A stretch of DNA of 64,000 nt from Salinispira sp. (GTDB taxonomy: Bacteria > Spirochaetota > Spirochaetia > DSM-27196 > Salinispiraceae), in assembly GCA_965602015.1 (NCBI GenBank), contig OZ271918.1, forward strand, positions 3,488,001 through 3,552,000, written 5' to 3'. Position 1 is the stretch's first letter, and each line of letters begins with the position of its first letter. Under the pieces are notes generated by a model. The model worked only from the letters and a program-made list of their open reading frames with translations, had not been told where the DNA came from and made no database searches. This document shows, one piece after another, positions 4,806 to 26,600 of the stretch. Made by a program: the position numbers and the translations under genes.

Positions 4806-4829
4806 TGGGTTCTCTCCTTCTTGCCGCAT

Positions 4830-5885
4830 CTATATGTGCCGCCTCAATTGTGCCGCCTCCGTCCTTACTGTATCCAGGAGCAGATCGGCGTTCTCTTCCG
4901 GATCGGTTCCGGGTGCGGGAATAACGCTGATGAGTGCGGCATCCCGGCGTTCCATGCTTCGCCTGTAGGCTTTGTCGTAGTATTGCAGGCAGATGCCCGC
5001 GGCCTCGCTTATGTTTCCCCCGTCTAATGCATTGTGCGCCATGGCAGTGCGTTCGCCCCCGAGTCTTTTTGCAATCATGTCGACCGCTGCGCCCAGGGCC
5101 TCCCGGGGAAAGCCGCCATAGATTTTGCACAATAATTGGATTCGCTTGTCCACCGGCACATCGAGGAAATAAAGCCGGCTGTGTGTCATTTTATCGAAGA
5201 GGGCCTTGGGCACGGCGACCCGGCCGATGTTTGTGCTCTCGTCTTCGAGCCAGATGGTCTGTCCTAAATCGAGGGATTGTAGAGCCGTAAAAAGCTGGTT
5301 CTCAAACTGCTCGTTTCGAGGTTGGGATTCCTCCCCCAGTGAGCCGAAGGCCGAGCCCTTGTGCCTGGCCAGACCCTCGAGATCGACCGTTTGGTAACCG
5401 CGCTCTTGAAGTACCTGTAGAACCCGGGTTTTTCCGCTGCCAGTGTATCCGCCGAGGACGGACAAGGACATCGGTTCGCTGAACAGCTCCAGAACCACGC
5501 GGCGGAATGCCTTGTATCCTCCCTCGAGAACCAGAACCTGGGAAAATCCGTTAGATGCCAAATGGTCCGCGAAGGCCTGGCTGCGCATTCCTCCCCGCCA
5601 GCAGTGAACGGCGGCTTTACCGTCCGGTGCATGGCGGAGAGACTCATCGATAAACTGTTCTAGCTTTGGCTGGACAAAATCCCTGCCCAGGGTGACTGCC
5701 GCTTCACGGCCCTGTTTTTTGTAGACGGTCCCGACCTCCGCCCGCTGCATATCGGAAAAAAGAGGAATAGTGCACGAGCCGGGAATATGGCCCTTGGCAT
5801 ACTCTCCCGGAGACCGGACGTCAATGAGTGGAACCGACTTGTGTTCTCGATAAAATTGCTCGATTGAAATGCGTGTTACGGCTAT
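4830..5885 (-). CDS. selU: tRNA 2-selenouridine(34) synthase
   Basis: CWRGGMRS rhodanese motif, P-loop GYTGSGKT, DLEGLARHKGSAFG. The frame stays open upstream of the listed ATG 5750 through LIDVRSPGEYAKGHIPG. Probable start is AUA at 5885. Confidence 0.9.
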   Translation of the reverse strand: MAVTRISIEQFYREHKSVPLIDVRSPGEYAKGHIPGSCTIPLFSDMQRAEVGTVYKKQGREAAVTLGRDFVQPKLEQFIDESLRHAPDGKAAVHCWRGGMRSQAFADHLASNGFSQVLVLEGGYKAFRRVVLELFSEPMSLSVLGGYTGSGKTRVLQVLQERGYQTVDLEGLARHKGSAFGSLGEESQPRNEQFENQLFTALQSLDLGQTIWLEDESTNIGRVAVPKALFDKMTHSRLYFLDVPVDKRIQLLCKIYGGFPREALGAAVDMIAKRLGGERTAMAHNALDGGNISEAAGICLQYYDKAYRRSMERRDAALISVIPAPGTDPEENADLLLDTVRTEAAQLRRHI

Positions 5886-5976
5886 GGGCTCAGCCCTCCG
5901 AATTGCATTGTAGCCCGAGGGCGCAGCCCTGTATATGCGGGTTTGCTGTCAATGTTCGCGGGTAATTCGCTGTGAC

Positions 5977-7422
5977 TCAGATGCAGGAAAAGCGAACGCT
6001 TCGGTTCTTCCCCAGGTCTTTTGCCCGGTAGAGGGCCTGGTCGGCCCGGAATATCAGCAGGTCCGGTTCCTTCCGATCCTCATGGCGGAACTCGGCGCAG
6101 CCCAGGCTTACGGTTACCCGCTCCTCTTGCTGGGTAAATGCATTTTCAACCGCCCTGCGTATGCGCTCGGCAATGCGTTCAGCCTGGCCCTCGTCGCTGT
6201 GAGTGAGGATGGCGGCAAACTCTTCTCCCCCGAAACGCGCCAGATAATCGGCATTTCGGAGCTGGTCCTGGGCGGTCTCGCAGACCTTCCTGAGAACCGA
6301 GTCCCCATACAGGTGACCCTTTCTGTCGTTAACCTTTTTGAAATCATCGAGATCGAAGAGAATCAGCGACATTTTCATATCGTGCCGTATGGATAAATCC
6401 ATCTCGCGCTGCAGCATTTCGTACATCCAGCGCCGGTTGTATATGCCTGTAAGCGGATCGCGGATTGAGATTTTCTTCATTTCTTCGAAGAGTTGGGCGT
6501 TTCTCAGGGCTATGGCAACATGATTGGCGAAATTCTGACCGCTCTGCATTTCCCTCTGGGTGAAATACGGACCGTCAACGCGGTCGAAGGTCATTACGCC
6601 AACCAGTTCCTGTCGGTGGATCAGGGGGAGTCCCATCCAGCAGGAAACCCTGCGTTCCGCCACCCGGGAAAATCCCGGGAAACGAATGTCCGGATCCTCA
6701 TTGAGGACTAGGGGCGCACGATTCTCCACTACTTCGGTGTTGGGGTTGTCGCCGGGGATGGCAAACCTCAAACCCATTAGCTTGTCCAAGGAATCGAACC
6801 CCCGTCCCCCGGCAATTTCCAGGTGATCTCCTTCCATAATTTGGACCGATGCGCTGCTGAAGGGAATGACCTGCCGAGCCTGATCCAGAATGGCGTTTAT
6901 TGTATGTTTGAGATCCAGGTGGCTGTTTATAATTGCCGCGGCGGAAGCCAGGGTGGATGCCTCCTGGGCGAGATGCTCGGCGCGCTGTTTTTCCAGCATC
7001 TGTTCGGTCATGTCGTAGTCGAACCCGATATAGTGGCGAATGCTTCCGTCGGCATTCCGGGAAACCGTGAGGCTGGTCGAATACACCCAGCGCCATTGGC
7101 CGCCTCTGGTTTTGATTCTGAATAAGACGCCGTTATCCGCATCTGACCCGTTTTCAAGGTTCGCCAGCGCGGCCTTTAAATCTCCAACATCCTCGGGGTG
7201 GACATGCTCCATAAACCGCTGATCCCGCATCTCGCCTTCGTCATAGCCCCATCGGTACCAGTACTTGTTCGGGTAGACGACTCCGTGCTCCCGGTCCTGG
7301 ATAAACAGTCCGAGTTCCCGAAGTTTCGCAATAAAAAGCGGGAGATCGATTTGCAGTGCGAATTTTGCCATGTCCTTCCGGATTCGCTCTTCAGGACTGT
7401 CATTTTTTACGCGATCATTCAT
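5977..7422 (-). CDS. PAS-GAF-GGDEF diguanylate cyclase
   Basis: PAS3 region (VHPED, WRWV), GAF region, and DPLTG...FKKVND...RFGGEEF. Confidence 0.9.
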   Translation of the reverse strand: MNDRVKNDSPEERIRKDMAKFALQIDLPLFIAKLRELGLFIQDREHGVVYPNKYWYRWGYDEGEMRDQRFMEHVHPEDVGDLKAALANLENGSDADNGVLFRIKTRGGQWRWVYSTSLTVSRNADGSIRHYIGFDYDMTEQMLEKQRAEHLAQEASTLASAAAIINSHLDLKHTINAILDQARQVIPFSSASVQIMEGDHLEIAGGRGFDSLDKLMGLRFAIPGDNPNTEVVENRAPLVLNEDPDIRFPGFSRVAERRVSCWMGLPLIHRQELVGVMTFDRVDGPYFTQREMQSGQNFANHVAIALRNAQLFEEMKKISIRDPLTGIYNRRWMYEMLQREMDLSIRHDMKMSLILFDLDDFKKVNDRKGHLYGDSVLRKVCETAQDQLRNADYLARFGGEEFAAILTHSDEGQAERIAERIRRAVENAFTQQEERVTVSLGCAEFRHEDRKEPDLLIFRADQALYRAKDLGKNRSVRFSCI

Positions 7423-7495
7423 GTCGGCCGTTTTTTGTCGTCATAGGTAATAGACATTATACCTGATATAAAATAATTGGGGAATTATTAGGCAG

Positions 7496-7529
7496 AAAAA
7501 AACGGCGGAGACAATGCTCCGCCGTTTTT
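7496..7529 (-). terminator. Rho-independent terminator (possibly bidirectional)
   Basis: Stem CGGCGGAG/CTCCGCCG flanked by A7 and T5 runs, just downstream of the ABC operon and small gene. Confidence 0.85.
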
Positions 7530-7559
7530 CCATTCCTCTGACTGCTGACCGCTGGATCG

Positions 7560-7763
7560 TCAGGCGATAAAGAAGGTTATCCAGATTCCAAACCCAATTG
7601 CAATGAGGCCCCAAATGGAGAAGAAGATCGTGGTCCCTGTTTCACCAAGGAGTTTGACGAAGCCCTGGACCTTGCCCAGTTTCCAGATCGGCTCAAACTT
7701 GAACACTCCGATAACGATACAGGCTACTCCATAAACCAGCAGAAAAATTCCTAAAAACAACAT
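7560..7763 (-). CDS. Small two-TM membrane protein
   Basis: 67 aa with two hydrophobic helices. SD AAGGAG upstream. Confidence 0.75.
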   Translation of the reverse strand: MLFLGIFLLVYGVACIVIGVFKFEPIWKLGKVQGFVKLLGETGTTIFFSIWGLIAIGFGIWITFFIA

Positions 7764-7819
7764 ATGCGCTCCTTCCGGGTTTGTACCCGATTCTATACCG
7801 GCGGATAGCCGGTCTGCTT

Positions 7820-8875
7820 TTATGCAACCGTCGAGAGTCCTTTGGCAATTTTTCCCCTAAGCAGCAGGAAGTATACACCTGCCACGGCGAAGGCGGTGCC
7901 GGACTTCCAGATTACCGATATCCAGTCCGCCGTCTGGGTGAAAATTCCTTCGAGGATGTCGTAGGTCCAGTACATCGGTGACCACCAGACGACCCAGTGC
8001 CAGTTGCGGGGAAGAAGGGTGGCTCCGAGAATGGCGAAAATAAACACCATTGAACCGACCTTCCCGATCCCCATAGCCTCTACTTCATTCTTGCCCATCC
8101 CCCCGATAAAGAGTCCGAATACCAGGGCCGATGAAAATGACAGGATTATAACCACGATCATCTGGAGGATGTTTATCCCCGCCAGACCTAAAACAAACAC
8201 CGCAATTACCGAGTAGACAAGAGTGACCAGGAAGGGGAACAGGCTCCTGCCGACATAATAGTCCGCCGTTGAAACCGGACTGGTCCTCAATGCCAGAATG
8301 GTGCCTTGATCCTTGTCCTCAACAATCGCCAGGCCCATGATAAATGCCACCATGATGTTTATGAAGACGATGAATATCGAACCGCCCATTGTCGCCACCG
8401 GCGAAATTGCCGTTCGATCCGACAGTTCCGCGGGGACTCCCGAGCTGAAGCTGGTGATTCGGGGGATATCGGGATAATTCTCCGACAGGTACAGCTGACG
8501 AATGAAGCGGGTGGTGATAGTGAAGCTTTCGTTCTCCACGCCGGTTCGCTCGACCACCGAGACATATTGCCCGTTCAGAGGGTCCCAATACAGCCCCTCC
8601 AGCTCGCCCACCGCCCGAAGCCGCCGTTCCATTTCTTCAGTGGTCGCATGTGGAATTACCTCGCCTATTTCCGCAAGCACGTCGATGACCGATTGATCCA
8701 CGGCGTTGGGCCCCTGAGTGACCACTGCGAATTTCGCCGTGGTGCTGTCTACCGCCGGAAGAAAGCTGCGAAGTATCAGCAGTATGACTATGGGCACAAT
8801 CATGAGGTATGCGCCCATGAAATTCTTGAAACTCATGCGGATATCGAATATGAAAATTCGCCATAGCTGTTTCAT
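7820..8875 (-). CDS. ABC-2 type transporter permease
   Basis: N-terminal TM, extracytoplasmic loop, EDKDQGT motif, several C-terminal TMs. Confidence 0.85.
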   Translation of the reverse strand: MKQLWRIFIFDIRMSFKNFMGAYLMIVPIVILLILRSFLPAVDSTTAKFAVVTQGPNAVDQSVIDVLAEIGEVIPHATTEEMERRLRAVGELEGLYWDPLNGQYVSVVERTGVENESFTITTRFIRQLYLSENYPDIPRITSFSSGVPAELSDRTAISPVATMGGSIFIVFINIMVAFIMGLAIVEDKDQGTILALRTSPVSTADYYVGRSLFPFLVTLVYSVIAVFVLGLAGINILQMIVVIILSFSSALVFGLFIGGMGKNEVEAMGIGKVGSMVFIFAILGATLLPRNWHWVVWWSPMYWTYDILEGIFTQTADWISVIWKSGTAFAVAGVYFLLLRGKIAKGLSTVA

Positions 8876-8876
8876 A

Positions 8877-9947
8877 TCAGGCCTCCTTCCGTATGCGGAC
8901 AGTAAAGAATGCCGCGGTTACCGGACCCAGCACCGCAGCCAATAGGGCGAGAACTCCGGCGCTCCGCCAGATTAGGTCGGCATTATTGTCGGGGAACATG
9001 GCCGCATCCAGTCCGAACAGGCTGTGAAACGTCGGTATGAGCTGTATCCATCCCGGTGAAAAAACCGGATTCAGGAGCGATACCCCCGGCAGGGCAAATA
9101 TCAGCATGAGTACGAAGACCCAGCCGATAGCCTCCATCGGACCCTTGTAAAATGACGCCAGGAAAATCCCAATGGACGACATGGCCAGAACCGTTACGAT
9201 CATTACCAGAAGGCCCTCCAGGTATCCCGCAAAACCCATTATGGGAAGGTAGATGATGGAGAAATTGAGAACGCTCACCGCAGTTATTACCAGGTGCTTG
9301 CTGAAGACGAACATGCCCAAACCGGAGGGTGACAGTCGGTAAGCCCTGATTGTGGCGTCCATCCTCTCCTGGCCGATGAGGGACACCATGGCGAATAATC
9401 CTATTAGCCCGATATTGAAGACGATGACCGGCGGCAGCAGCTGCTTGTTAAAGGCAGGAATTACCTGCTCACCGCGTTCCAGGGCTTCGACCCGTACAGA
9501 GGCGTACACATCGGCGGGGTATCTGCCGGCGGGAGGGTGCAGAATGTTCATCAGGTCCTCAAGATCCACTTCCAGGTAATCAACAAGGGCCTGCTTTGTG
9601 TAGGGCTGGGTAAGGGCTTCAATCTGATAGCGCCCGCCGGGGGCCGAATCGATAATCAGACCGATTGCGCTCCGGTCCTCTGTCATTCCGGCGATGAGTT
9701 CTTCCCGATCCGCGACATAGTATTCCCCCATGACCTGTTCATGATCCGGCACGTTTTCCTGTACAAAGCACTGGATTATGCCCGTATTGTCGAGTATATA
9801 TGCCCGGCCTTCGGTGCGCACATCTTCGGGAATCACAAACAAGAGCAGGAGCATGAATACAACGGAAAAGACGATTTCCAGCAGAAGAAAAATGTCCTTG
9901 AATCCAAGAACGATGTCCTTGCGCAGGAGATTAAGCAGTTTTTTCAT
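8877..9947 (-). CDS. ABC-2 type transporter permease
   Basis: Same architecture as its neighbour, with a QERMDATIRAY motif. Confidence 0.85.
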   Translation of the reverse strand: MKKLLNLLRKDIVLGFKDIFLLLEIVFSVVFMLLLLFVIPEDVRTEGRAYILDNTGIIQCFVQENVPDHEQVMGEYYVADREELIAGMTEDRSAIGLIIDSAPGGRYQIEALTQPYTKQALVDYLEVDLEDLMNILHPPAGRYPADVYASVRVEALERGEQVIPAFNKQLLPPVIVFNIGLIGLFAMVSLIGQERMDATIRAYRLSPSGLGMFVFSKHLVITAVSVLNFSIIYLPIMGFAGYLEGLLVMIVTVLAMSSIGIFLASFYKGPMEAIGWVFVLMLIFALPGVSLLNPVFSPGWIQLIPTFHSLFGLDAAMFPDNNADLIWRSAGVLALLAAVLGPVTAAFFTVRIRKEA

Positions 9948-9956
9948 AGCTTCCTC

Positions 9957-10817
9957 CTATTCGAGACCACGTCCGGTGAGTTTGATGAAAATATCCTCCA
10001 GGGAGGGTTCGAGCGAGTGAATGGTTTTTACATCGTGCTCTCCGATGAAGTTTTGCAGCTGCTGCTTCCCATCTCCCTGCATGCTGAACTCCGCAGCCTG
10101 CAGTTCGCCGTTTACCTCGTACTCGACTTTTGCCATGAGCTGTCCGTATTTAAGCTTCAGATTTTTCGGGCTGTCGACGGCCACCAGGCTTCCGTCCACA
10201 ATAAAGGCAACCCGGTCGCAGAGTTCATCGGCGACAAACATATTGTGGGTGGTCAGAAAAATGGTCGTACCCTCGGCCTGCCGCCGCCGAATAATCGACT
10301 TGATGCTGTTTGCCGTCGATGGGTCGAGTCCCATGGTCGGTTCGTCCAGAAACCAGATATCCGGATTATTGATCATTGACCGGGCGAACCCCAGGCGCTG
10401 CTTCATACCTTTCGAGTACTGTCCGGCTTTTTTGTCAGCGTCCTCGGCCAAGCCCACCATTTCCAGCACCTCCATGGGATCCATGGTCGGCCTGTCGTAG
10501 AGTTGGGAGTGAAATTTCAGGTTGTCCTTGCCGCTGAGCTTCTTGTACACGTTTGGAATCTCGAAGCCCATTCCGATTCGGTTGAAGAAATTTTTGTCCG
10601 GATGTCCCCTGCGGGTATCGCCGTCGATACTGATGCTGCCGGACTGGATCTGCTGCAGACCGGCAAGAATTGCCTGTGTCGTGGACTTGCCCGCGCCGCT
10701 TGGTCCCAGAAAGCCGAAAATTTCTCCCTTGGCGATGGAAAAACTGACGTCCTTCACCGCGGGGACCTTGGATTTCTGGTATGTGTGGGTCAAATTCGAA
10801 ACCTCGATCATGCTCAT
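9957..10817 (-). CDS. ABC transporter ATP-binding protein
   Basis: Walker A GPSGAGKS, signature YSKGM, Walker B WFLDEP. Start ATG 10817 after GGAGG. Confidence 0.92.
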   Translation of the reverse strand: MSMIEVSNLTHTYQKSKVPAVKDVSFSIAKGEIFGFLGPSGAGKSTTQAILAGLQQIQSGSISIDGDTRRGHPDKNFFNRIGMGFEIPNVYKKLSGKDNLKFHSQLYDRPTMDPMEVLEMVGLAEDADKKAGQYSKGMKQRLGFARSMINNPDIWFLDEPTMGLDPSTANSIKSIIRRRQAEGTTIFLTTHNMFVADELCDRVAFIVDGSLVAVDSPKNLKLKYGQLMAKVEYEVNGELQAAEFSMQGDGKQQLQNFIGEHDVKTIHSLEPSLEDIFIKLTGRGLE

Positions 10818-10853
10818 ACGCACCTCCGATAAGCAGATTGGATGACTGACTTT

Positions 10854-10889
10854 TGTAGTATTGTACTGTTACTATAGTACAATAATACA
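10854..10889. promoter_or_regulatory. Long inverted-repeat operator upstream of the ABC operon (GntR/YtrA-like)
   Basis: TATTGTACT-N8-AGTACAATA at 10859-10884, extendable to TGTAgTATTGTACT...AGTACAATAaTACA with one mismatch. Confidence 0.7.
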
Positions 10890-10951
10890 TCCACACAAGT
10901 TACTTATCAAGATTAATTATGTAAAACTTTGAGATTTCTTTTTTTGATTCG

Positions 10952-11995
10952 CTACCCCGCAAAAGGCGATTCACAGAGCCTGAGAACTCCCGTGAGGGGA
11001 TCACTTTCGACTTCAATTCCAAGCGGAAGAATAATCTGCGGATCGCAGTGACCGAAGCTGAGGTTTGATGCGATGGGCAGTTCCGGATGCCCGAATTCAT
11101 CCCCTACCACCCCTGTCAAAACCGAGTCCAGTGCCGCCTTCTCCTCGACGCTGTATCCCCGGGCCCTGCTGAACATAATTCCCCGGATACGGTCGTAGAC
11201 CCCCATGGCTCCGTAGTTCCGCAGCCAATATCGGACGAAATCCACTGGTGGAACTTCTTCGGAGGTTTCGAAAAACAGCACCTTATCGTTCCAAAAATTC
11301 TCATCGGGCCAGTAGCGGGTGCTCTTTTGCATTTCCAGGACCTCGATGCACCCTCCCCATAGCTGACCGCGAAAAGCTTTTTCACCCTGGAGCCATCGCC
11401 GGCCATCGTCATAACTCTGCGGATTAATTTTGCCGACGTTCTCCCTGCTCCATGGGGGATAGCCCTCGCTGTAGGCGGTAAAATCGGGGATGGCTGCCTC
11501 CGCACCGCGGCCGAACAGAAAATCATTGAAGTACTCGCCATACCCGGCGCCGAAGGCAGGAAGCTGGGAAAAGCCCGCCATCACCGAAGGGCCGTTGAAG
11601 CTGACCAGTCCGAGGCGGGCGAAATAGCTGGTGTAGCCCGAGGTATCGGAGAATCCCATAAAGAACTTCGGATTGCGTTGAATGGCCTCCAGATCCAAAA
11701 ATTGCAGGACCCGGACTGAATCGCTTCCGCCGATAGAGGCAATGATTCCCTGTATCGAGCTGTCTGCAAAAGCTTCATTAATATCGTCGGCCCGCATTTG
11801 GGGCCGGGAAAAGAGCAGGCCGGCATCGGCCCGGGCTGTGGGGAACTCAACCACCTCGAGCCCGAGGCTGCGCATATTGGCAAGACCTGAGTCATACACG
11901 TGCGGACAAACCGATGGACCGCCCCATGACGGGGAGATTATCGCTACCCGGTCACCGGGTTTGAGCTGAGCAGGTTTTGCGTTGGAATTTAACAT
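10952..11995 (-). CDS. S66 peptidase (LD-carboxypeptidase / MccF family)
   Basis: LKPGDRVAIISPS, GFSDTS (catalytic Ser), FFETSEE (Glu), FGHCDP (His). Confidence 0.9.
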   Translation of the reverse strand: MLNSNAKPAQLKPGDRVAIISPSWGGPSVCPHVYDSGLANMRSLGLEVVEFPTARADAGLLFSRPQMRADDINEAFADSSIQGIIASIGGSDSVRVLQFLDLEAIQRNPKFFMGFSDTSGYTSYFARLGLVSFNGPSVMAGFSQLPAFGAGYGEYFNDFLFGRGAEAAIPDFTAYSEGYPPWSRENVGKINPQSYDDGRRWLQGEKAFRGQLWGGCIEVLEMQKSTRYWPDENFWNDKVLFFETSEEVPPVDFVRYWLRNYGAMGVYDRIRGIMFSRARGYSVEEKAALDSVLTGVVGDEFGHPELPIASNLSFGHCDPQIILPLGIEVESDPLTGVLRLCESPFAG

Positions 11996-12079
11996 GAGTT
12001 TTGCTCCATTACATTGGGTATGGGGGCCGGATCAGATTTACGCGCGCATCGCGCCCCGATGATCCGCGCGCAAGGGAGT

Positions 12080-13048
12080 TTATCCGATCCAGTTAAGAAG
12101 CAGTTCTGAAAAACCTTCGATCCGTTTTCGGTTCAGGATAAAGAAAAGACTTTTGTTTCCCCCGGCGCGCTTTGTTATGAGGCCGGCCTCCTCAAGGATG
12201 GCCATGTGCCGGGAGATCGTCGATTTTGCGTAGCCCATTCGCTCTCCGATTTCTTTTTGATTCATTTCCTGATTTGCAATGAGCAAAAGGATTCGAAGCC
12301 GGCTTTTATCAGAAAGGGCGAATGCAAGCCCGGAGATCTGGTCGATACCGGCGGATCGCCGATGGGTATCATTAAAAGGTATATCCCATGCGAGCACGAA
12401 GGATTCACCTGCGTCGTAACCGATCATCATGTGGGGAAACGCGAACATGCTCACTACGATCCCGAAACCTTTCATGCTCGCCGCATCAAAATCCATATCG
12501 AGCCACTTATCGAGAACAATGACATCTTTTGAGGGGCGATGGACAACTCTGTCGGAGATGCTGCCGACAAACTCTTCAACGCTGCTGTCGGCAATGCGTT
12601 GACGTCCGTAGAGAATACGTTCCCGAATCGCGGTCTCCCTCTGGTCAATCAGCGGTTTGAAATAGGAACGGTGGAAGTACCCGAGGAACTCAACCAGCCT
12701 GACCCGGTCATCAGCGCTGAGGCGCTCGTCCCCCGGCTCACGATAATTGGCCGGATCAGAAAGAAAGGACTGATAGTCCTGAGTAAACCCGTCCGCCCCG
12801 ATAAGGTCAGTATCATCCCCAAAAAAGGAGTCAAGTCGGAGGAAGCCGCCGACCATTTCTCCGACTGTTTGGAAATCGGCTCGCTCCTTGACGCTCATTC
12901 GCGAAAGTACCCGGTATGCCCATTCGCGATGATCCGGGTGATGGTCCGGTTCGCCGAGGACGTCAAGGCAGAGGGCTATCTCACTGGCCTGGGAGAAATA
13001 CACCGTAGTAATCGCATTGAGCCGGGAGGCATTGTGGATAGTAATCGT
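12080..13048 (-). CDS. ArsR-family transcriptional regulator with large N-terminal domain and C-terminal wHTH
   Basis: C-terminal ALSDKSRLRIL...STISRHMAILEEAGLI. The frame is open upstream of GTG 13003 to an ACG at 13048, which is preceded by AGGAG. Confidence 0.8.
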   Translation of the reverse strand, partial: TITIHNASRLNAITTVYFSQASEIALCLDVLGEPDHHPDHREWAYRVLSRMSVKERADFQTVGEMVGGFLRLDSFFGDDTDLIGADGFTQDYQSFLSDPANYREPGDERLSADDRVRLVEFLGYFHRSYFKPLIDQRETAIRERILYGRQRIADSSVEEFVGSISDRVVHRPSKDVIVLDKWLDMDFDAASMKGFGIVVSMFAFPHMMIGYDAGESFVLAWDIPFNDTHRRSAGIDQISGLAFALSDKSRLRILLLIANQEMNQKEIGERMGYAKSTISRHMAILEEAGLITKRAGGNKSLFFILNRKRIEGFSELLLNWIG

Positions 13049-13074
13049 GACGGGGCTCCTGATAGTACTGGCTC

Positions 13075-13083
13075 AGTATATCA
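13075..13083 (-). promoter_or_regulatory. Extended -10 promoter element of the ArsR gene
   Basis: TGaTATACT on the minus strand, about 15 nt upstream of the SD. Confidence 0.55.
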
Positions 13084-13093
13084 CGCCGCGTCC

Positions 13094-13912
13094 TCAGCTG
13101 TAACTCAGGTCCCCTCGCTCTTTTCCCCGCCGCTCCCCAAATCGGAGCAGGTCTGTGGCGAGGATGCCATATGCTATTGCCAGCAGAGCCAGGACACCTG
13201 CCGAGCGGAGCATGGCGCCGTAGTCCGGTTGCTCAGTGAGAGCCAGGCGGATTAGGCTGATCGAATGGGAAATAGGGTAGAGAAGAGCCATACCGGCGAA
13301 CCCTGCCGGAAGTGCTGAAACCGGGAAGCGGAATCCCGAGAAGAAGTCTGCTGGGGTTTCAAAAAGAGCATAAAGAAATCGGGCATTCCGCCCTATGAGG
13401 AAAACCGACGAGACGAAAGCCCCCCAGGGTATGCTCGCCAGGATTACATACATTATGCTTCCGGCCACCAGAAACGGGTGTACTAAAGAAATATCGAAAA
13501 GAATAATTGCCGAAGCCATCAAGCTGACAACGCTAATCACTGCACTTATTACCGCGCTCAACGAGAGACCCATTAACCAGGCCAAACGGGAAGCCGGTGA
13601 GAGGTATAGTATTTCCAGAACGCCGAAATCCCGTTCCGTACTTATACCCATGCCGATTCCGATGTATTCCTGGAAGAGGAACAGAACGAATATGCCTGAA
13701 AATAAGTAGGTCCACAAATCCAGGTCTCCGCTCACAGCCGGTACGCCGCCCTTTCCGTCCCAGAACGGTGCATAGGACAAATAGACGCTTGCTATATGAA
13801 GCAGGGGCCAGAGCAGCTGTTGAAGGAAGAATACCGGGAGGTTGAAGTGTATCCTGCGAATTGTGTTTGTCAGCTGCATCTTGTAAAGCAACGTCAGATT
13901 GCCGGGGCTCAT
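13094..13912 (-). CDS. ABC-2 type transporter permease
   Basis: ERDFGVLE motif, FSGFRFPVSALP, about six TMs. Confidence 0.85.
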   Translation of the reverse strand: MSPGNLTLLYKMQLTNTIRRIHFNLPVFFLQQLLWPLLHIASVYLSYAPFWDGKGGVPAVSGDLDLWTYLFSGIFVLFLFQEYIGIGMGISTERDFGVLEILYLSPASRLAWLMGLSLSAVISAVISVVSLMASAIILFDISLVHPFLVAGSIMYVILASIPWGAFVSSVFLIGRNARFLYALFETPADFFSGFRFPVSALPAGFAGMALLYPISHSISLIRLALTEQPDYGAMLRSAGVLALLAIAYGILATDLLRFGERRGKERGDLSYS

Positions 13913-14874: not shown

Positions 14875-14898
14875 CGGTACCCCCTTATATTGCGATTG

Positions 14899-15693: not shown

Positions 15694-15715
15694 GGCCCTC
15701 CCAGAAAATGTTAGT

Positions 15716-15737
15716 TAGTTCGCTAATAAGCGAACTA
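15716..15737. promoter_or_regulatory. Palindromic operator overlapping the ABC operon -10 box (probable ArsR site)
   Basis: Perfect TAGTTCGCT-N4-AGCGAACTA, overlapping a minus-strand TATAGT. Confidence 0.7.
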
Positions 15738-15855
15738 TACAAGTATCGCGCACTATTCAATTTGATGCAAGCACCTTGGATCTTTGACCGCGAAAGCTTC
15801 TTTTTGCCCGGATCTCGCGATACAATTGCATCGCAGGTTCTGCACAGGAGGACCG

Positions 15856-17040: not shown

Positions 17041-17056
17041 AGGCTTCGCAAGCAAA

Positions 17057-18319
17057 CTATCGGCGGGCGGCGATTTCCCGGCATTTTTTACTGTAATGAT
17101 CCAGCATATCCCGCTCGAAAGAGTCATTGTCCGGGTACTGACGGCCGAGTACCGGTTGCCACAGGCCGGGGTCTTCCATGCACAGATAAAAAAACACCGC
17201 ATCCCGCCAAGAATAAAGTTCATCCGCAGCCAGGGAGAACATCTTCCGCTTTATCTCAAAAGGATATGAGTACTTCCCGGCAATCTCCTCCATGGGCATC
17301 TGAAGAATTGCGCTCTTGAAATCCCTATTGCGGATTTTTTTTAATACCGGCTTGATGTAGGTGAGGGTTCCCAGGCTGACGAGCACCACCTCCGAAGGAG
17401 AGAACCGCCGCTTCATTTCGCGGAAGAGTTGGCGGTACTCTTCTTCCCAGTTTTTGTAATGCACCATAGGATGAAAATGAAACCCGATAGGAATCCCCCT
17501 GTCAGCGCAGGCCCGGGCGGCTGACAGACGCCGCTCAAGATCGGCGGTTTGGTGTTCTTCATTCGCTATGACGGCGTCGGTATTAAGCGACCAGGTCACT
17601 AGCACATTCGCAGGAACCGGGTTTTCCATCAGCCAACGGATATTGTCTGATTTCGTTTTTAGCTCGAGAATGACCTGTGGTCTTTTCGCTGCGAAGCTCA
17701 TAAGATTTTCCAGCAGCCCCTCCCGGTTGCCCCACATGAGGGAATCCGATGACTGGCCGGTGCCGATGTGGTAGGGTTTTTCCGAATCCAGGTCCAGGTT
17801 CTCCAGCTTGTCGGCGAGATTTCCGTGAAAGGATATTTTTCCGTCATCATAAAATGACTGGATGGAGCAGTAGGAGCAGTCAAAACCGCAGCGGAACACC
17901 GCATCCAGGGTGTACAGATTGCAGCAGCGGGTCTTTTCCGACGCCACCGGGCAGCGGCCCATTATATTGCGACCGTCGCTGATCTCGATAAAGCGCGATG
18001 TTGTCGCTGGGGGAGCATCAGTCGGGCTCGAGAGATAATCGTGCCCGGCGGCAGCGAGGGTGCGGTAATAATCCCTAAAAGCAGTCATCAGGGTTTCACG
18101 CGGTCGGGGACTCCGGAGGTCTACTGTTGCTTCCGGCTTTTTTTGGGCAAAGCTCGCTTCGTTCCACATATTCATGTCCCGCATCATGACCATCAGTTGT
18201 TGTTGCTGGGACCGGGTCAGACAGTAGGTCTTGGAGACTTTGCTCAGGTAATCCTTGTCGTCTTCAGAGAGAAGGATGAATAGGGCTTGATTTGAGAGAT
18301 GCTCCTGACCGTCCTGCAT
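17057..18319 (-). CDS. Spore photoproduct lyase-like radical SAM protein
   Basis: CGFDCSYC cluster motif, GTGQSSDS, LELKTKS, WSLN, GFHFHP, YLCME. The true start is likely ATG 18319, since the listed upstream part overlaps the neighbouring gene. Confidence 0.8.
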   Translation of the reverse strand: MQDGQEHLSNQALFILLSEDDKDYLSKVSKTYCLTRSQQQQLMVMMRDMNMWNEASFAQKKPEATVDLRSPRPRETLMTAFRDYYRTLAAAGHDYLSSPTDAPPATTSRFIEISDGRNIMGRCPVASEKTRCCNLYTLDAVFRCGFDCSYCSIQSFYDDGKISFHGNLADKLENLDLDSEKPYHIGTGQSSDSLMWGNREGLLENLMSFAAKRPQVILELKTKSDNIRWLMENPVPANVLVTWSLNTDAVIANEEHQTADLERRLSAARACADRGIPIGFHFHPMVHYKNWEEEYRQLFREMKRRFSPSEVVLVSLGTLTYIKPVLKKIRNRDFKSAILQMPMEEIAGKYSYPFEIKRKMFSLAADELYSWRDAVFFYLCMEDPGLWQPVLGRQYPDNDSFERDMLDHYSKKCREIAARR

Positions 18320-18338
18320 TGCCGGAAGTATACCAGAA

Positions 18339-19451
18339 TCACCCTCGTAATTCAGCGTTTTTATGTGAAGGAGTATTCGAAGCGTCCCGAGGCAGAGCCC
18401 AAAACGACTGGTCGGGCATATCGATGCAGGAGCCGCAATACTCGTTCTGGGAATTGATAATCCCGGCCCGCCGGACACCGGGAATTACCTGGAGATCAAA
18501 AATCTCGTCCACCGATGATTTGTAGGTGAGCTGTCCGACCTTTGAGGCGGTGGGGAGGTGGATGATTTCTATGCCCGCCCTGCTTGCTCCATCGCTGATT
18601 TCCAGATCGCGAAAAATCGACGAGTTCTTTCGTAGCCGCGAATAGGCAATAAAAAGGAAATCACCCCATTTCGCCATTCCGCGGACAAAACCGTTTATTT
18701 TCCGCACCAACTCACGCCGTCCGTTTTTCCGGTCAATATGAACCAGTTCACCGGTGGCCGACAATAAGAGGTATAACTCTCCGTCATAGAGCCTTGGTGT
18801 ATGGGGCATGGGAAGTTCGCGGGAAATAATCTCTCCGTCCGGCAGACTGTAGAGCACCCCGCCCCCGGGTAGTCCCGGTTTCCAGGAGCGCGGGCTGTCC
18901 CCCGTGTTAAAGGCCGTGGCATAGGCCGGTTCACCGTTATCCATTGCCATTCCGTTCAAATGGCAGCGGTCCTCCGGCGCCAGTCGGGAGATGGAAGGCG
19001 GTTTCCAGGCGGGGTAGAATGAGTAATTCTCTCCGACAATCCCGATGCAGGACATGGTGGTGTTTACCGCCCAAAGTCCCTTATTGCCCCATTCGAGGCT
19101 GTGGATATCAAGGGGCCCCGTGTGGTACTCGGCCTGGGGCACATAGATGGTCTCGTAGAGTTCTTTCTGCCGGGGATAATCAGGAGCCAAGCGGGGAGAG
19201 GAGCGCAGCACCACCACCCGGGAGCGACAGGCCACTGCCAGGGATGCGCCTCGTATGCCCAGAGCCATTGCCTGCTCGAAGTTTCGCGGCAGCTGTATAA
19301 GCTGTTCATCATTCAGAGCCGACAAAAAAATGACCTTGCCAGCCTGGTATGTGGAGACCGCGAGGGTGAGCCCCGCCTGGTTAAAAAATTCCGGGACATT
19401 CGGCGAGTAGGTGCAGGTGAATGGTGCTGGAGGCTGATTTACCCTATCCAC
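18339..19451 (-). CDS. TIGR03032 / DUF4915 family protein (unknown function)
   Basis: Family motifs STYQAGK, TGPLDIH, EDRCHLNG, MPHTPR, GFVRG. Confidence 0.85.
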   Translation of the reverse strand: MDRVNQPPAPFTCTYSPNVPEFFNQAGLTLAVSTYQAGKVIFLSALNDEQLIQLPRNFEQAMALGIRGASLAVACRSRVVVLRSSPRLAPDYPRQKELYETIYVPQAEYHTGPLDIHSLEWGNKGLWAVNTTMSCIGIVGENYSFYPAWKPPSISRLAPEDRCHLNGMAMDNGEPAYATAFNTGDSPRSWKPGLPGGGVLYSLPDGEIISRELPMPHTPRLYDGELYLLLSATGELVHIDRKNGRRELVRKINGFVRGMAKWGDFLFIAYSRLRKNSSIFRDLEISDGASRAGIEIIHLPTASKVGQLTYKSSVDEIFDLQVIPGVRRAGIINSQNEYCGSCIDMPDQSFWALPRDASNTPSHKNAELRG

Positions 19452-21484: not shown

Positions 21485-22095
21485 ATAAGTCTCCCGGCGT
21501 ACGATGCACTCAGCAGCTTGTCACCCTCTGCCTTGAAGCGCACATCCACGGGAACCTGGGGGAAGTTTTCGCTGCCGCTGATTATCAGTGCGTAGCCCTG
21601 AAGTCCTCCGGTCCGCGGAAGATCCGTATACCTGTTGATGAAGCTGCCGTTTATATGCAAATCGTAATTTCCGGCGGCATTCTGCGTGAGGCGTATAATA
21701 TTCGTATCACCGTAGGCGCTGAGTATCGAGGGCTCCTGGGTCCAGGCGCAGTGGCTGCGGTAGGTGCCGTTTACCAGGGACTCGACGCAGTAGGCCCCGT
21801 CCAGCGATATAAGTACAAGGGTATAATTGCTTTCGTCGAGGTAGTTCACCAGCATGCCGTATCCTGCGCTGTAGTCTCCGCTCATTTTCTTCACCTGCAG
21901 CTCGTACGCGGAAAACGGCTCCTGACTAAGATCGCTCAGCGGCAGGTAAGCAAGGCTCTCGGCCACCAGCTGATTATTCGATGAGAACTGCCGGAAACCC
22001 TGGGCGTCGGGCTCCCAGGGTATGGTGACTACCCTGTTTTCGCCGCAGGAAACCAGGAGGAAAACCGATAACATCAGGAAAATGAATGTTCGCAT
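21475..22095 (-). CDS. Hypothetical lipoprotein
   Basis: MRTFIFLMLSVFLLVSC signal peptide and lipobox, beta-rich mature part. Overlaps the start of the PKD gene. Confidence 0.75.
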   Translation of the reverse strand: MRTFIFLMLSVFLLVSCGENRVVTIPWEPDAQGFRQFSSNNQLVAESLAYLPLSDLSQEPFSAYELQVKKMSGDYSAGYGMLVNYLDESNYTLVLISLDGAYCVESLVNGTYRSHCAWTQEPSILSAYGDTNIIRLTQNAAGNYDLHINGSFINRYTDLPRTGGLQGYALIISGSENFPQVPVDVRFKAEGDKLLSASYAGRLIWP

Positions 22096-22200
22096 AAGTA
22101 AACCCTCATTCACAATAATGCGTTTGGGGTGTCAGCGCAATAGTTTATCGGTATTAATGAGATTTTTTATCGAGGAAAATTCGAATTGTGTGTGAAAATA

Positions 22201-22938
22201 TCAATCGTTGAGCAATGTGGACCATCGGTATACATCGGTGCGCCACTTGAGAGTGTATCCGTTGTTCATTGCGACGCGAAGAGAGCCGGGGTTTCCGTCC
22301 CAGGTGCGCCATAGCGGAGTGCGTCCGTTAGCCAGACAGGCCGCGGTAACCTCACCCACCAATGAGGACCCCAGTCCTCGCCCCCGGCTGTCGGGATGAA
22401 TGAGGATGCCCGTGTCCGAAAGTCCCTTCTCCCAAACCCGGTACCCCGCATACCCAACGGGAATGTTGCCGTAATAGGCCATGCGGATTTCCTCATCGGG
22501 ATCGTCGACGTCGATGAGCGCGTCTTCTACGTCGCTTTTGCTGTTTCGATCCAGAAAAGCTTGTATGGTCTGATGATCTCCCGGATCGATTTTGCGAATC
22601 TCAAAACCGTCGGGGTGTGTAAAATCCGGTCCGCTTTCTTCTTCATAGATCAGATGAGGATGACGTTCCTCAAGCTCCCAGCCCGTGAACCGTTTCCCCA
22701 GTTCTTCCGCCGTGCAGCGTTGCAGGAAGTGATCGCCGAGGTAGTCTGATAATTCCGGCGATACGGTAATGAGGGTTTTTTCAAGCGGCCGGGTGATGTA
22801 GAGGTTTTGTTCGCCCGAGAGACCCTCGATAACCCGAATGGCGTTGCCGACCTCTGTCATTTCATCCGCTTCGATGCCGTAGAGCTCGGCATATACCTCA
22901 AGGAGTACCTGCTCGGCTTTGCTGCGGGTCCTTTCCAT
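22201..22938 (-). CDS. GNAT family acetyltransferase
   Basis: HPDSRGRGLG acetyl-CoA motif, NPGSLRVA. Confidence 0.8.
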   Translation of the reverse strand: MERTRSKAEQVLLEVYAELYGIEADEMTEVGNAIRVIEGLSGEQNLYITRPLEKTLITVSPELSDYLGDHFLQRCTAEELGKRFTGWELEERHPHLIYEEESGPDFTHPDGFEIRKIDPGDHQTIQAFLDRNSKSDVEDALIDVDDPDEEIRMAYYGNIPVGYAGYRVWEKGLSDTGILIHPDSRGRGLGSSLVGEVTAACLANGRTPLWRTWDGNPGSLRVAMNNGYTLKWRTDVYRWSTLLND

Positions 22939-22953
22939 ATGTTCACCTCACCG

Positions 22954-24696
22954 TTATTGTTGTTCACCGGAGGCCAGATTTTCCACATAGCCCGCGTAGA
23001 CGCCGGATTGAGCCATGAGTTCCTCATGACTGCCCCGTTCGACGACCAGGCCGTCTTCCAGAACCAGAATGATGTCCGCATGCCGAATAGTGGATAATCG
23101 GTGGGCGATGACGAAGCTGGTCCGGCCCTCCATCAGCGGAACCAGCGCCTTCTGGACCATGGCCTCGGTTTCGCTGTCCAGGTAGGCGCTGGCCTCGTCG
23201 AGGATGAGAATGGACGGATTGCGTATCAGCGCCCGGGCGAAGGCTATGAGCTGTTTTTGGCCCAGAGAGATATTGTTCCCGTTTTGACCCAGTTCGCTGT
23301 GGTATCCTTTAGGAAAGCCCTCGATCATCCGATGTATTCCCAGTGTTTTTGCGACCTGCACGATTTCATCCATCTCCGCATCGGGCTTCCCGAATCTGAT
23401 ATTCTCAGCCACGCTGCCGGAAAAAATCTGCGGATCCTGCATAACCGAGGACATTCCGGACCTGAGGGATCTCTGCGCGAAGTCTCTGATGTTCCTGCCG
23501 TCTATCAGTATCTCGCCGGAACTGCAGTCGTAAAACCGGTTTATGAGATTCACCGTTGTCGATTTGCCGGAACCGGTGTGCCCGACGATGGCGCACATGG
23601 ATCCCGCCGGGATAAAAAAGCTGATGCCCCGAAGCACCGGTTCGTCTGCTTCGTATGAAAACTCCACATTGCGGAATTCCACATCCCCCCTAAGAGAGCA
23701 ATCTTCTATCGCCCCAGGGGCGTCCTCAACCTTCACCGGCTCCTCGAGAACTTCGAAAATGCGCTGGCCGGAAACCACCGCCCTGCTCATTTGATTGAGC
23801 ATGTTGCTGATTTTTTGCATCGGCTGGAATAGCCGGGTCACGTAATTCAGAAATGCGACGATCACCCCCAGCGTGATGAGTTGGTAGTGAAGAAGTACCC
23901 CCCCGACGAGTATCACCAGCCCCTGGCTGACGGTATTGAGGGATGCCACCGACTGCCAAAAAATGGCGTGAAGGGGGTAAAATTTACGGGTGCTGTGGTA
24001 ATACTCTCCGTTGAGTCTTTGAAACTCAGCGATGTTCCGTTCTTCCCTGGCGAAGGCCTGTATCACCTTTATTCCCGAGAGGGATTCGTTGAGAAAATTG
24101 TTTACCCCGGACAATTCCCTCTGAATCCTGGAGGCAACCTCCATGATGTAGTTCCTTAATACGAAGACGATAACTGCCAGGAGCGGAACGACAAAAAGCA
24201 GAATGAGGCTGAGTCTGGGGTTGAGGCTTATCATGGTGATGATCAGGCCGAGTATCATTAACACATCGACAAGAACCGTATCGAGCCCGGCCATCAACAG
24301 TTCTTCCAGCACCTGAACGTCGCTGGTGACCCTGGTGATGAGGGTTCCCGACTTGTTTTTATCGAAGAAATGTATCGACTGACCCTGGATTTTGGAAAAT
24401 AGGTCCCTGCGCAATGAAAAGAGGACCCGGTTGCCGATTTTCATCATGAGACGGCCCTGAATTCTGAAGCTGATAAACTGCAGGGCTGCGGCAAGTCCGA
24501 CGTAGATCGCCATCCGCAGCATCACGTTCCGGTCGCCGGGGACGATGCCGAAGTCGATGGCCCTCTGGATGAGCAGGGGGATCAGGATGAGGGATAACAC
24601 GTTGAGCACGGCAAAAATATACATGACCGCTATGGCTGCACGGTGGGGTGCCAGGTAGGCGATGAGTTTTTTGAGAAAAATTTTGAGGTCTTTCAT
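22954..24696 (-). CDS. ABC exporter subunit (TMD + NBD)
   Basis: GHTGSGKS, degenerate signature ISLGQ, ILDEA, IAHRLST. Confidence 0.92.
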   Translation of the reverse strand: MKDLKIFLKKLIAYLAPHRAAIAVMYIFAVLNVLSLILIPLLIQRAIDFGIVPGDRNVMLRMAIYVGLAAALQFISFRIQGRLMMKIGNRVLFSLRRDLFSKIQGQSIHFFDKNKSGTLITRVTSDVQVLEELLMAGLDTVLVDVLMILGLIITMISLNPRLSLILLFVVPLLAVIVFVLRNYIMEVASRIQRELSGVNNFLNESLSGIKVIQAFAREERNIAEFQRLNGEYYHSTRKFYPLHAIFWQSVASLNTVSQGLVILVGGVLLHYQLITLGVIVAFLNYVTRLFQPMQKISNMLNQMSRAVVSGQRIFEVLEEPVKVEDAPGAIEDCSLRGDVEFRNVEFSYEADEPVLRGISFFIPAGSMCAIVGHTGSGKSTTVNLINRFYDCSSGEILIDGRNIRDFAQRSLRSGMSSVMQDPQIFSGSVAENIRFGKPDAEMDEIVQVAKTLGIHRMIEGFPKGYHSELGQNGNNISLGQKQLIAFARALIRNPSILILDEASAYLDSETEAMVQKALVPLMEGRTSFVIAHRLSTIRHADIILVLEDGLVVERGSHEELMAQSGVYAGYVENLASGEQQ

Positions 24697-26501
24697 TATG
24701 CGCCTCCGCTCATGGCATCTTCGCCGATTGAACCGAAATTCATCTGGGTTTGGTAGGCCGAACGGTATACCGGGCTTTTTTTCAGGAGCCCTTCATGGGA
24801 ATCCATGTGATCGACCCTCCCCTCGTGAAGGACGATGATCCGGTCCGCAAGACGGAGGGTGGACATCCTTTGGGCGATGATCACCGTTGTTCTTCCGGAC
24901 ATCAGTTGGCGCAGTTCTTCCTGGATTTCCCGCTCGGTTCGGCTGTCCAGGCTCGATGTGCAGTCGTCGAGGATGAGTATCGAGGGGTCCTTGAGGATGG
25001 CCCGGGCGATTGCAATGCGCTGTTTCTGACCTCCGGAAAGCCCCAGACCGAATTCGCCTACGGTGCTGTCGTAGCCGTCGGGTAGCGTCATGATGTGGTC
25101 GTGAATCCGCGCAGCCTTGGCCGCCTCGATGATTTCTTCCCTGCAGGCTCCCGGCCGGCCGTAGGCGATATTGTCCATGATGCTCATTGAAAACAGGAAG
25201 CTTTCCTGCAGCACCATGCCTATCCTGCTGCGCAGGTACTCCAAATCCCAATCCTCCAAAGCTGCGCCATCGAGGGTAATTGAACCCTTGTCAGCCTGGT
25301 AGAATCGGGGAATCATGGAAATCATGGAGCTCTTCCCGGAGCCGGTTAGGCCGAATACCGCCACACGCTCGCCGGGCTTGATGCAAAAATTGACATTTTC
25401 CAGGACCGGAGCGCTGCCCTCGGGATAGGAAAAACTTACGGACTCGAACCGGAGTTCGCCCCGAATCCGGTCGCGCCGGTGTCCGGTATCCAGATGCCTC
25501 TGGTCCGGCTGAGAAAGAATCTGGTGGATCCGTGCCGTCGCACCCGAAGCCAGGCTCATGGTGCTGGTATTGAATGCCAGGATGTACATCGGGAAACCGA
25601 TAATCGCTAAGTAGGTCATGAAGCCCAGCAGGGTTCCCAGGGTCATGCCGGCGGAGCCCTCGAGAATTTGCCAGCCGCCGTAGAGAACGATAATCAGCGA
25701 TCCGATAGTGTTGGTGAGGATGAGCACGGGATTCATCCGTGCCTGGAGGTCGGCGGCCTCGGTCGAGGATTCCAGGAGGGTTTCGTTGGCCTGGGAAAAT
25801 CCGCTAATTTGGTGATTCTCAAGTGCGAGGGCTTTGATGATGCGGATCCCGTACAAGTTTTCCTGCAGGAAGCTGGAGAGTGCACCGGTACTCTGCTGCT
25901 TTCTGACCACTGCGCTGTTCATGCGGCTGCTGAAATAGATCACCATATAGAGAATCACCGGGATAATGCTGTACACCACAAGGGCCAATCGCCAGTTCTG
26001 CCAGAGCATGAGGCCGAGCACCGCGGTGGTGATAAGAACCACCCTGACCCGGTGTTCTATACCGAATGCGAAAAAGTTCCGGAGCATTTGAACGTCCGAG
26101 GAAACCCGGGACATCAGGTCTCCGGTTCGGGCGCTATCATAAAACGGAGCGGGAAGATGCTGCAGTTTTTCGAACAGCTCGTTTCGGATGTCCCGTACCA
26201 CGGTTTCAGCCAGGTACCAGAAGCTCCGAATCATCAGGTGGACCATCCCGCCCCGGACAAGGCCGGCGGCAATTATCAATCCACCAAAGAGAAAAAGAGG
26301 CGGAAGAGAACCTTCGCTGCCGAGATTGGGATAAATATTGTCGGTAACGTGTCTGATTAGCAGCGGCAGGGTATAGGCGAGAATATCGATGATTACCATA
26401 AAAGCGAGCGCGGTAATCAGCGCTTTGCGGTGCCTTTTGAGAATATGAGCGAAGGGTTTAATGATGCCCCGAAGGCCGTTGTACGTGTTTTGCTTTGTGA
26501 T
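24696..26501 (-). CDS. ABC exporter subunit (TMD + NBD), heterodimer partner
   Basis: GLTGSGKS, LSGGQ, degenerate ILDDC and IAQR. The frame is open upstream of ATG 26399 to an AUC at 26501 preceded by AAGGAG. Confidence 0.9.
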   Translation of the reverse strand: MTKQNTYNGLRGIIKPFAHILKRHRKALITALAFMVIIDILAYTLPLLIRHVTDNIYPNLGSEGSLPPLFLFGGLIIAAGLVRGGMVHLMIRSFWYLAETVVRDIRNELFEKLQHLPAPFYDSARTGDLMSRVSSDVQMLRNFFAFGIEHRVRVVLITTAVLGLMLWQNWRLALVVYSIIPVILYMVIYFSSRMNSAVVRKQQSTGALSSFLQENLYGIRIIKALALENHQISGFSQANETLLESSTEAADLQARMNPVLILTNTIGSLIIVLYGGWQILEGSAGMTLGTLLGFMTYLAIIGFPMYILAFNTSTMSLASGATARIHQILSQPDQRHLDTGHRRDRIRGELRFESVSFSYPEGSAPVLENVNFCIKPGERVAVFGLTGSGKSSMISMIPRFYQADKGSITLDGAALEDWDLEYLRSRIGMVLQESFLFSMSIMDNIAYGRPGACREEIIEAAKAARIHDHIMTLPDGYDSTVGEFGLGLSGGQKQRIAIARAILKDPSILILDDCTSSLDSRTEREIQEELRQLMSGRTTVIIAQRMSTLRLADRIIVLHEGRVDHMDSHEGLLKKSPVYRSAYQTQMNFGSIGEDAMSGGA

Positions 26502-26600
26502 TCCGTGCTCCTTGAGGATGACCTGTGGTTATCGGGACAGTCTACTTGCGATGATTTTCCCTGTCGATAGGAAGGGAATCCGCCGGAACATTTCCCGACC

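Follow-up and report, generated by a model that had tools for sequence, protein, structure and literature searches.

The 64-kb window analysed here (the whole stretch G000:C1:3488001-3552000) belongs to a single-contig genome of 3.87 Mb and 53.8% GC, G000, which we treated as that of a free-living spirochaete given that its ArsR and FliO homologs are named from Spirochaetales, Salinispira and Marispirochaeta. Three genes of the window, encoding selU, an ArsR-type regulator and an ABC exporter subunit, most likely start at the near-cognate codons ATA, ACG and ATC behind Shine-Dalgarno (SD) sequences, to judge by their reading frames and homologs. We consider it likely that initiation in this bacterium is ordinary and that a small share of genes, these three among them, begin at weak near-cognate codons led by an SD. 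They are new examples of a class already known; the new, relaxed initiation system of the original prediction does not hold up.

Three window genes behind near-cognate codons

The three genes and their putative initiation signals are as follows (NUG denotes the in-frame start codons ATG, GTG and TTG; energies are for pairing with the anti-SD).

4830..5885, minus strand: selU/mnmH, tRNA 2-selenouridine synthase (NCBIfam MnmH), 351 aa if begun at ATA 5885-5883
5895..5899, minus strand: SD of selU, GGAGG, duplex -10.0 kcal/mol; the in-frame AGG at 5897-5895 is the ATG position of the ortholog in the relative G001
5907..5912, minus strand: -10-like hexamer of selU, TACAAT, a putative promoter element; in G001, TATGAT stands 8 nt ahead of the ATG
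12080..13048, minus strand: regulator with DUF5937 and an ArsR-type HTH (Pfam), 322 aa if begun at ACG 13048-13046
13056..13060, minus strand: SD of the ArsR gene, AGGAG, 7 nt before ACG, duplex -6.6 kcal/mol
13075..13104, minus strand: sigma-70-like promoter GTTACA-18-TATACT with TG, a consensus match, leaving a leader of ∼20 nt
24696..26501, minus strand: ABC exporter subunit (Pfam ABC_membrane and ABC_tran), 601 aa if begun at ATC 26501-26499
26508..26513, minus strand: SD of the ABC subunit, AAGGAG, 6 nt before ATC, duplex -7.5 kcal/mol

The sites are present as first described: all three lie on the minus strand, with an SD followed after 9, 7 and 6 nt by ATA, ACG and ATC (for selU the spacing is 8 nt if counted from GGAGGG), and these SDs pair with the genome's own anti-SD at -6.6 to -10.0 kcal/mol. 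Domain models and homolog columns confirmed that none of the genes has a NUG at or upstream of its family's N-terminus. No NUG lies between the upstream stop and ATG 5750 in selU (45 codons past ATA), GTG 13003 in the ArsR gene (15 codons past ACG) or ATG 26399 in the ABC subunit (34 codons past ATC), and these downstream codons have no SD, with duplex energies of +3.4, -1.5 and -1.1 kcal/mol, respectively, against the values listed for the near-cognate sites. Starting there would also cut conserved sequence. The MnmH profile (349 bits against a cut-off of 241) begins at ORF residue 30 and the first ATG is residue 67; the ABC_membrane domain begins 29 residues after ATC; and the ACG column is Met1 in 10 of 11 ArsR homologs.

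As anticipated, gene callers truncate these proteins, and the protein collection contains forms of 306, 307 and 567 aa begun at the downstream NUG. Database forms of the candidate near-cognate-start proteins lack 15–45 N-terminal residues, including most of the first part of the selU rhodanese domain, the lead-in to the first membrane helix of the ABC subunit and the signal-like N-terminus of FliO (discussed below), and annotations in the family need correcting.

In selU, ATA lies one codon before the position at which 84 of 119 homologs begin. Comparison with sister genomes separated the three genes. In the G001 ortholog of the ABC subunit, which is 79% identical, the matching column is occupied by an ATC 6 nt behind GGGGAG, and no NUG precedes it. 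Elsewhere the start is one codon later (ATG in G002, GTG in G005) or at the same column (GTG in G007), and among order-level homologs (30 matches, with short 5' stretches of DNA seen for 11) all 10 with visible 5' ends have a NUG within 9 codons. The ABC ATC is therefore common to two species and derived.

The selU codon is shared with no relative, the start being ATG in G001 and G005. In G001 the ATG stands four codons earlier, 8 nt after TATGAT; at that column G000 has AGG, 9 nt after TACAAT, so that a single ATG to AGG change both removed the start codon and created the GGAGG SD. Since 84 of 119 homologs start one codon on, ATA is probably a good fallback start. Against a reading of the AGG as methionine, an ordinary tRNA-Arg(CCT) is present in the genome. 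Among 41 genomes searched, selU was present in four, one of these a weak 27-aa match, and was not found in the complete genome of the same-genus relative G002. The best-matching selU homologs are named from Bacteroidota, which hints at transfer.

For the ArsR gene, a close ortholog was not found in five family genomes or in the genome contig and metagenome contig collections. Five full-length genomic homologs (three distinct sequences) have ATG at the ACG column, 6–8 nt after a -10 box, and would be leaderless; G000 instead has the promoter-like site (1 found against 0.1 expected in shuffled sequence), a 20-nt leader and the SD. With codons shared by no relative compared, selU and the ArsR gene could be recent down-mutations.

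Two neighbouring genes complete this part of the window.

3759..4829, minus strand: selD-like gene (AIRS and AIRS_C), its ATG directly after the selU stop; the name is suggested by its domains and its neighbour
22954-24696: second subunit gene of the ABC pair, of which the ATC-start gene is the first

The adjoining selD-like and selU genes together span 3759-5885; an ARAGORN scan of G000 gave no tRNA-Sec.

Candidate near-cognate starts across the genome

Frequencies were estimated from 3,093 genes called in G000 with a dicodon model and from the gene sets of two relatives, G001 (618 genes in 0.75 Mb, ∼1/5 of the genome) and G002 (1,237 genes in 1.6 Mb, ∼2/5). Candidate near-cognate starts with homology support numbered 14 among all called genes (0.45%) and 6 among the 1,083 genes for which an ortholog had been sampled (0.55%), with similarly small numbers of candidates in G001 and G002. 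The density of the window (3 of 59 genes) is therefore not representative of the genome. Seven of the 14 are conserved, five are unshared (selU, ArsR and three others) and two are without relatives compared; positions below are those of G000.

3514501: the ABC subunit in genome coordinates, ATC; conserved
3710849, plus strand: SLT lytic transglycosylase, ATC; conserved
2110928, minus strand: fliO, SD-led CTG; conserved
2988276: cyclase, ATC immediately following the upstream stop codon in both G000 and G002; conserved
3256467: gene that we take to be ECF-sigma-like from a reading of its sequence rather than a profile scan, CTG in G000 and G002, with upstream ATGs also in G000; conserved
2546578: MFS transporter, CTG, with ATC behind AAGGAG in G001 and a leaderless ATG in G002; conserved
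1247203: DnaJ-domain protein, ATC, with ATC and an ATG two codons later in G001; conserved
2611373, minus strand: TetR regulator, TATAGT-6-ATC, the leaderless position (extended -10 plus 6 nt); unshared
3461578, minus strand: GntR regulator located 27 kb before the window, AAG in place of the ATG of G001 and G005, no SD; unshared
2464727: McsA, CTG behind a 7-match SD; unshared
3559605: CPBP protease, CTG; no relatives compared
3818157: glycosyltransferase, CTG; no relatives compared

Two of these starts recur across several family genomes. Behind AGGAG(G), the transglycosylase starts at ATC in G000 and at ATT in G001, G002 and G003, that is, in four of seven family genomes; G004, G005 and G007 have an upstream ATG. 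The fliO CTG is present in G000, G001, G002, G004, G005 and G006, six of the seven family genomes with fliO, with ATG in G003; G007, which is 57% complete, yielded no fliO. It also occurs in G014, a member of another family verified as fliO. A tight fliO pattern matched 3 of 201 class genomes; a loose pattern was discarded as it gave chance matches, its reversed control also producing hits, and only G014 was verified. Several FliO entries in the databases begin within the signal-like N-terminus or ahead of it. Among the unshared cases, the TetR gene has no NUG for 74 codons and all six homologs have ATG or GTG; it would be either a silent gene or a rare leaderless near-cognate start. The GntR AAG sits 12 nt after the upstream stop, and re-initiation might make use of an ATA that precedes it by two codons. 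A switch in the reverse direction was also seen, where a G001 gene has CAGGAGG-5-CTG and G000 (1131590) has GTG.

Tabulating start codons against SD positions, as the original prediction had proposed, yielded these 14 candidates and no overall excess. In the 2,841 genes that scored well, an SD of at least 5 matches preceded 502 in-frame codons located before the first NUG; ATC, ATA, ATT, CTG and ACG accounted for 37 of them against 37.5 expected (p = 0.56). In the 178 genes without a signal-bearing NUG, all seven near-cognates together numbered 12 against 7.9 expected. The SD and near-cognate pattern alone is therefore mostly chance, and homology is needed. Indeed, most of the 37 hits are followed by a NUG with its own signal or by the domain start (surE, HAD nucleotidase, flippase, GNAT); the SD-led ATA at 62062 of the window, for example, is a chance site, as ATG 61990 already opens the GNAT domain. 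The SDs of the 12 SD-led candidate sites are ordinary (42nd–96th percentile).

In a test anchored on orthologs, 17 of 518 anchors had no NUG within 4 codons in G000. Two were kept (ABC and MFS) and 15 were set aside, being explained by mis-anchoring or by N-termini of varying length. Residue conservation ahead of the first NUG proved too noisy a measure, as close relatives share upstream DNA, and those counts were not used. Also dropped were two ORFs with an identical upstream stretch that look broken by insertion, further candidates that are internal fragments, and one column near-cognate in both orthologs, which is internal to a presumably fabG-like gene. The rpiB candidate (905237) has no near-cognate start; compared with the 88% identical G001 sequence, this rpiB-like gene (G000:C1:905267-904740, minus strand) reads as frameshifted close to the 5' end. 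Start codons shared with a relative were 621 ATG, 83 GTG and 30 TTG of 734, a ratio like the 81.8/13.8/4.35% reported in 10.1101/063800.

Initiation machinery and leaderless genes

Inspection of infC and tRNA-fMet, proposed as a way to detect relaxed initiation, showed an intact IF3 and a canonical initiator tRNA. General identity rules for initiator tRNA pick out one such tRNA, with a CAT anticodon; its first base is unpaired and its anticodon stem has three G-C pairs. Both 16S 3' ends carry CACCTCCTTT, and the anti-SD is normal. The gene infC is single, full length and above both Pfam cut-offs, and its product can be aligned over the whole length with E. coli IF3 (E 4e-50) and with those of class relatives; blastn of infC against E. 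coli gave no match. IF3 of G000 keeps Y75, R129, R131 and R133, residues that we take to be important from E. coli mutants, and its differences R99 to Q and R116 to E are common to the class. The search of the machinery, which left out RsmI and IF2, found infA, fmt, rsmH, ksgA and rpsA present without stops, the full-length rpsA at G000:C1:1429550-1431091. A second, shorter S1-like gene lies in the window at 46734-47900 (plus strand; G000:C1:3534761-3535783), giving ∼390 aa from an ATG after TATAAT and GAGGAG.

One departure was found in infC itself. In G000 (region of G000:C1:2054858), as in the family (7 of 7 genomes) and in 10 of 11 genomes from elsewhere in the class (11 of 40 infC loci found were examined), it starts with TTG, mostly 3–5 nt behind an SD, and not with ATT or ATC. 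IF3 accepts UUG, and infC is stated to use AUU or AUC in all bacteria (PMC5499595). The TTG is thus a real departure from AUU/AUC, but it is class-wide and gives no evidence of relaxation.

Leaderless candidates were defined by TAnnnT 6–9 nt before ATG or GTG without a strong SD. TAnnnT peaked 6 nt before the start, with an excess of 8.2% of 734 shared starts in G000, 10.5% of 260 in G001 and 3.2% of 473 in G002. Seven of the 59 window genes match this sequence pattern, close to the eight or so originally counted, and only one of them (start 18319) is inside 4830-26513, the interval that holds the three near-cognate genes.

17057..18319, minus strand: radical-SAM (SPL-like) gene, TATACT + 7 nt + ATG
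1265..2125, minus strand: TATAGT + 6 nt + ATG
28526..28909, plus strand: TAAGCT + 6 nt + ATG; start common to an ortholog
48655..49167, minus strand: mechanosensitive-channel-domain gene, TATACT + 6 nt + ATG
49217..50200, minus strand: fabH-like gene, TATACT + 6 nt + ATG; start common to an ortholog
56488..57792, plus strand: DUF1576 gene, TATAAT + 8 nt + GTG
58176..59777, minus strand: TPR-GGDEF gene, TATACT + 6 nt + ATG

The proposed link between near-cognate and leaderless starts found no support: the 78 leaderless-type shared starts are strict, with 73 ATG and 5 GTG, and the leaderless share of the genome is ∼8%. Leaderless genes are a separate, common feature using ATG and GTG. The same TAnnnT ∼6 nt before ATG/GTG is found in Actinobacteria and Deinococcus-Thermus (PMC3160421, PMC4633059), where leaderless shares are 19.2% and 39.4%, respectively, against 3.9% (1.8–6.9) in Spirochaetes (PMC3160421). 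The G000 value is slightly above the spirochaete range, obtained by another method, and well below 19–39%; it also falls short of the ∼20% from which a genome counts as leaderless-rich (PMC3160421).

Competing explanations and known systems

We propose that at the SD-led sites the SD would place the near-cognate codon in the 30S P site, where fMet-tRNA would pair with one mismatch; normal IF3 would reject most such complexes, leaving an output of perhaps 0.02–3% of that of an AUG start, the range given for near-cognates in E. coli, where an N-terminal Met was shown for AUC and ACG (10.1101/063800). Two classes may be distinguished. In the first (ABC, transglycosylase, fliO, cyclase, ECF-sigma-like, MFS and DnaJ-domain genes), starts kept across species by selection would probably serve scarcity, limiting products such as a wall hydrolase, an assembly chaperone or an exporter that may be needed little or do harm when abundant. 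The second holds changes confined to G000, at starts for which relatives use a NUG (ArsR ACG, selU, TetR ATC, GntR AAG, McsA CTG), which could be leaky down-mutations or early decay; in selU, with AGG now at the ATG position, the start was probably rescued at ATA. Three of these five belong to repressor families, in which negative autoregulation could buffer a weak start. The analysis shows the sequences, orthologous positions, conservation and counts directly; we infer that translation begins at these codons, how strong it is and whether it is of benefit. Overall, this is probably a known way of holding a few proteins at low levels and not a loosened system.

Several observations weigh against so ordinary an account. 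Behind SDs of at least 6 matches, near-cognates showed a slight excess (16 against 10.5 expected, p = 0.06), as they did in the 178 genes without a signal-bearing NUG (6 against 2.7, p = 0.045). A chance NUG lies upstream of 98 of 349 SD-led starts, and such masked cases escape the count, so that the true number of near-cognate starts may be near 20. Candidates are also clustered, with three in 21 kb (p = 0.03 under uniform placement) and five of 14 in 100 kb (G000:C1:3461578-3559605, p = 0.003), both tests being post hoc. Apparent lesions shrank on inspection from 27 to two clear nonsense codons, in 1,135 genes, plus two uncertain C-terminal ones; set against these, and allowing for the different denominators, the five unshared start changes suggest that start changes are better tolerated than nulls. 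Finally, 0.45–0.55% exceeds what experiments have established in S. aureus and D. deserti, roughly four genes in each genome, as counted by other methods. The 100-kb stretch is rich in transporters and regulators.

The alternative that fares best, though we regard it as doubtful, is that selU and ArsR, together with TetR and GntR, are dispensable and effectively silent genes that lost their start codons, the SD pattern being incidental. Each is one base from the relatives' ATG at the same column, the change that removes the selU ATG itself makes GGAGG, selU is patchily distributed as described above, and the TetR ATC occupies a leaderless position, for which mycobacterial initiation requires ATG or GTG (PMC4633059). 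The frames are otherwise intact and above curated cut-offs, however; the ArsR gene has a promoter, leader and SD where its relatives are leaderless, the selU ATA is one codon from the family's usual Met, and clear nonsense lesions are rare. Start loss also leaves the conserved class unexplained.

A more elaborate scenario, which we offer as a speculation with odds well against it, is that Spirochaetia swapped the IF3-sensitive infC AUU for a conserved UUG and that ∼15–25 envelope, motility and regulatory genes of this order form a small translational regulon jointly tuned by IF3 or nutrients. If so, fliO, the lytic transglycosylase, the cyclase, the sigma factor, exporters and repressors would be its members, on CUG, AUC, AUU and ACG, and near-cognate initiation would be efficient enough for new ATG to ACG or ATC changes to stay functional.

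Less probable still is the original prediction, in which weak or scarce IF3 relaxes start discrimination and near-cognate and leaderless starts serve as a regulatory layer. The seven conserved near-cognate starts, some across genera, do show that the lineage shares the habit, and the slight excess behind strong SDs and the second S1 gene agree with the idea, as does the infC TTG, since with a UUG that IF3 accepts the classical feedback may be missing (PMC5499595). Lost feedback alone would not lower IF3, however, and IF3 and its TTG start are class-wide rather than specific to the lineage. Leaderless genes are too few and too strict, and there is neither an overall near-cognate excess nor a shift to GTG or TTG. 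With 14 of 3,093 genes, no overall excess behind SDs and normal machinery, a relaxed system is not supported.

Assembly error is hardly credible for the three window start codons: although they differ from ATG by single bases and the check used contigs of four runs, all from one sample of a single study that may itself have given rise to the assembly, all four show no other letters over 5600-13300 (selU and ArsR sites, with ABC, TetR, GntR and McsA outside it), two of them spanning it in one contig at a depth of ∼31–32, and the ABC ATC is common to G001.

The best leads are the fliO CTG and the transglycosylase ATC/ATT, both conserved, and the class-wide infC TTG, all outside the window; they bear on the ways in which spirochaetes restrict assembly factors and regulate IF3. 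A search by title and abstract opening, covering few subscription papers, found no report of any of the three.

Such starts resemble established cases. In S. aureus, ribosome profiling identified four SD-led non-canonical sites, including infC AUA, cvfC1 AUU and ccpN AUA (PMC13009471); as there, a handful of genes per genome is involved, with normal SD spacing, conservation in relatives for part of the set and a transcriptional repressor among them. The S. aureus sites were demonstrated by profiling and reporters and have extended SDs, while those of G000 are predicted, have ordinary SDs, fall in other genes and are dominated by CTG, ATC and ACG. D. deserti has at least four (dnaA ATC, rpsL CTG, Deide_03051 CTG, infC ATA; PMC2830850) and shares with G000 the codons, conservation within the genus, mis-annotation by gene callers and the presence of leaderless genes; it differs in its peptide evidence and core-gene targets, and in the 39% leaderless share of its phylum (PMC3160421). 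In E. coli, N-terminomics gave 17 alternative starts lying upstream, of which a single one was ATC (PMC13245402), profiling in M. tuberculosis is described as showing no enrichment of CTG, ATT or ATC (PMC9094748), and switches to CUG or AUU are described as very rare in annotated genomes (PMC5622118). A mechanistic parallel is provided by E. coli infC and pcnB, which have AUU starts, with autoregulation of IF3 (PMC5499595, PMC2830850). As in these genes, a weak start would limit expression through IF3 proofreading, which we assume for G000; unlike in E. coli, infC of G000 starts with TTG, and no feedback loop is evident for the three window genes.

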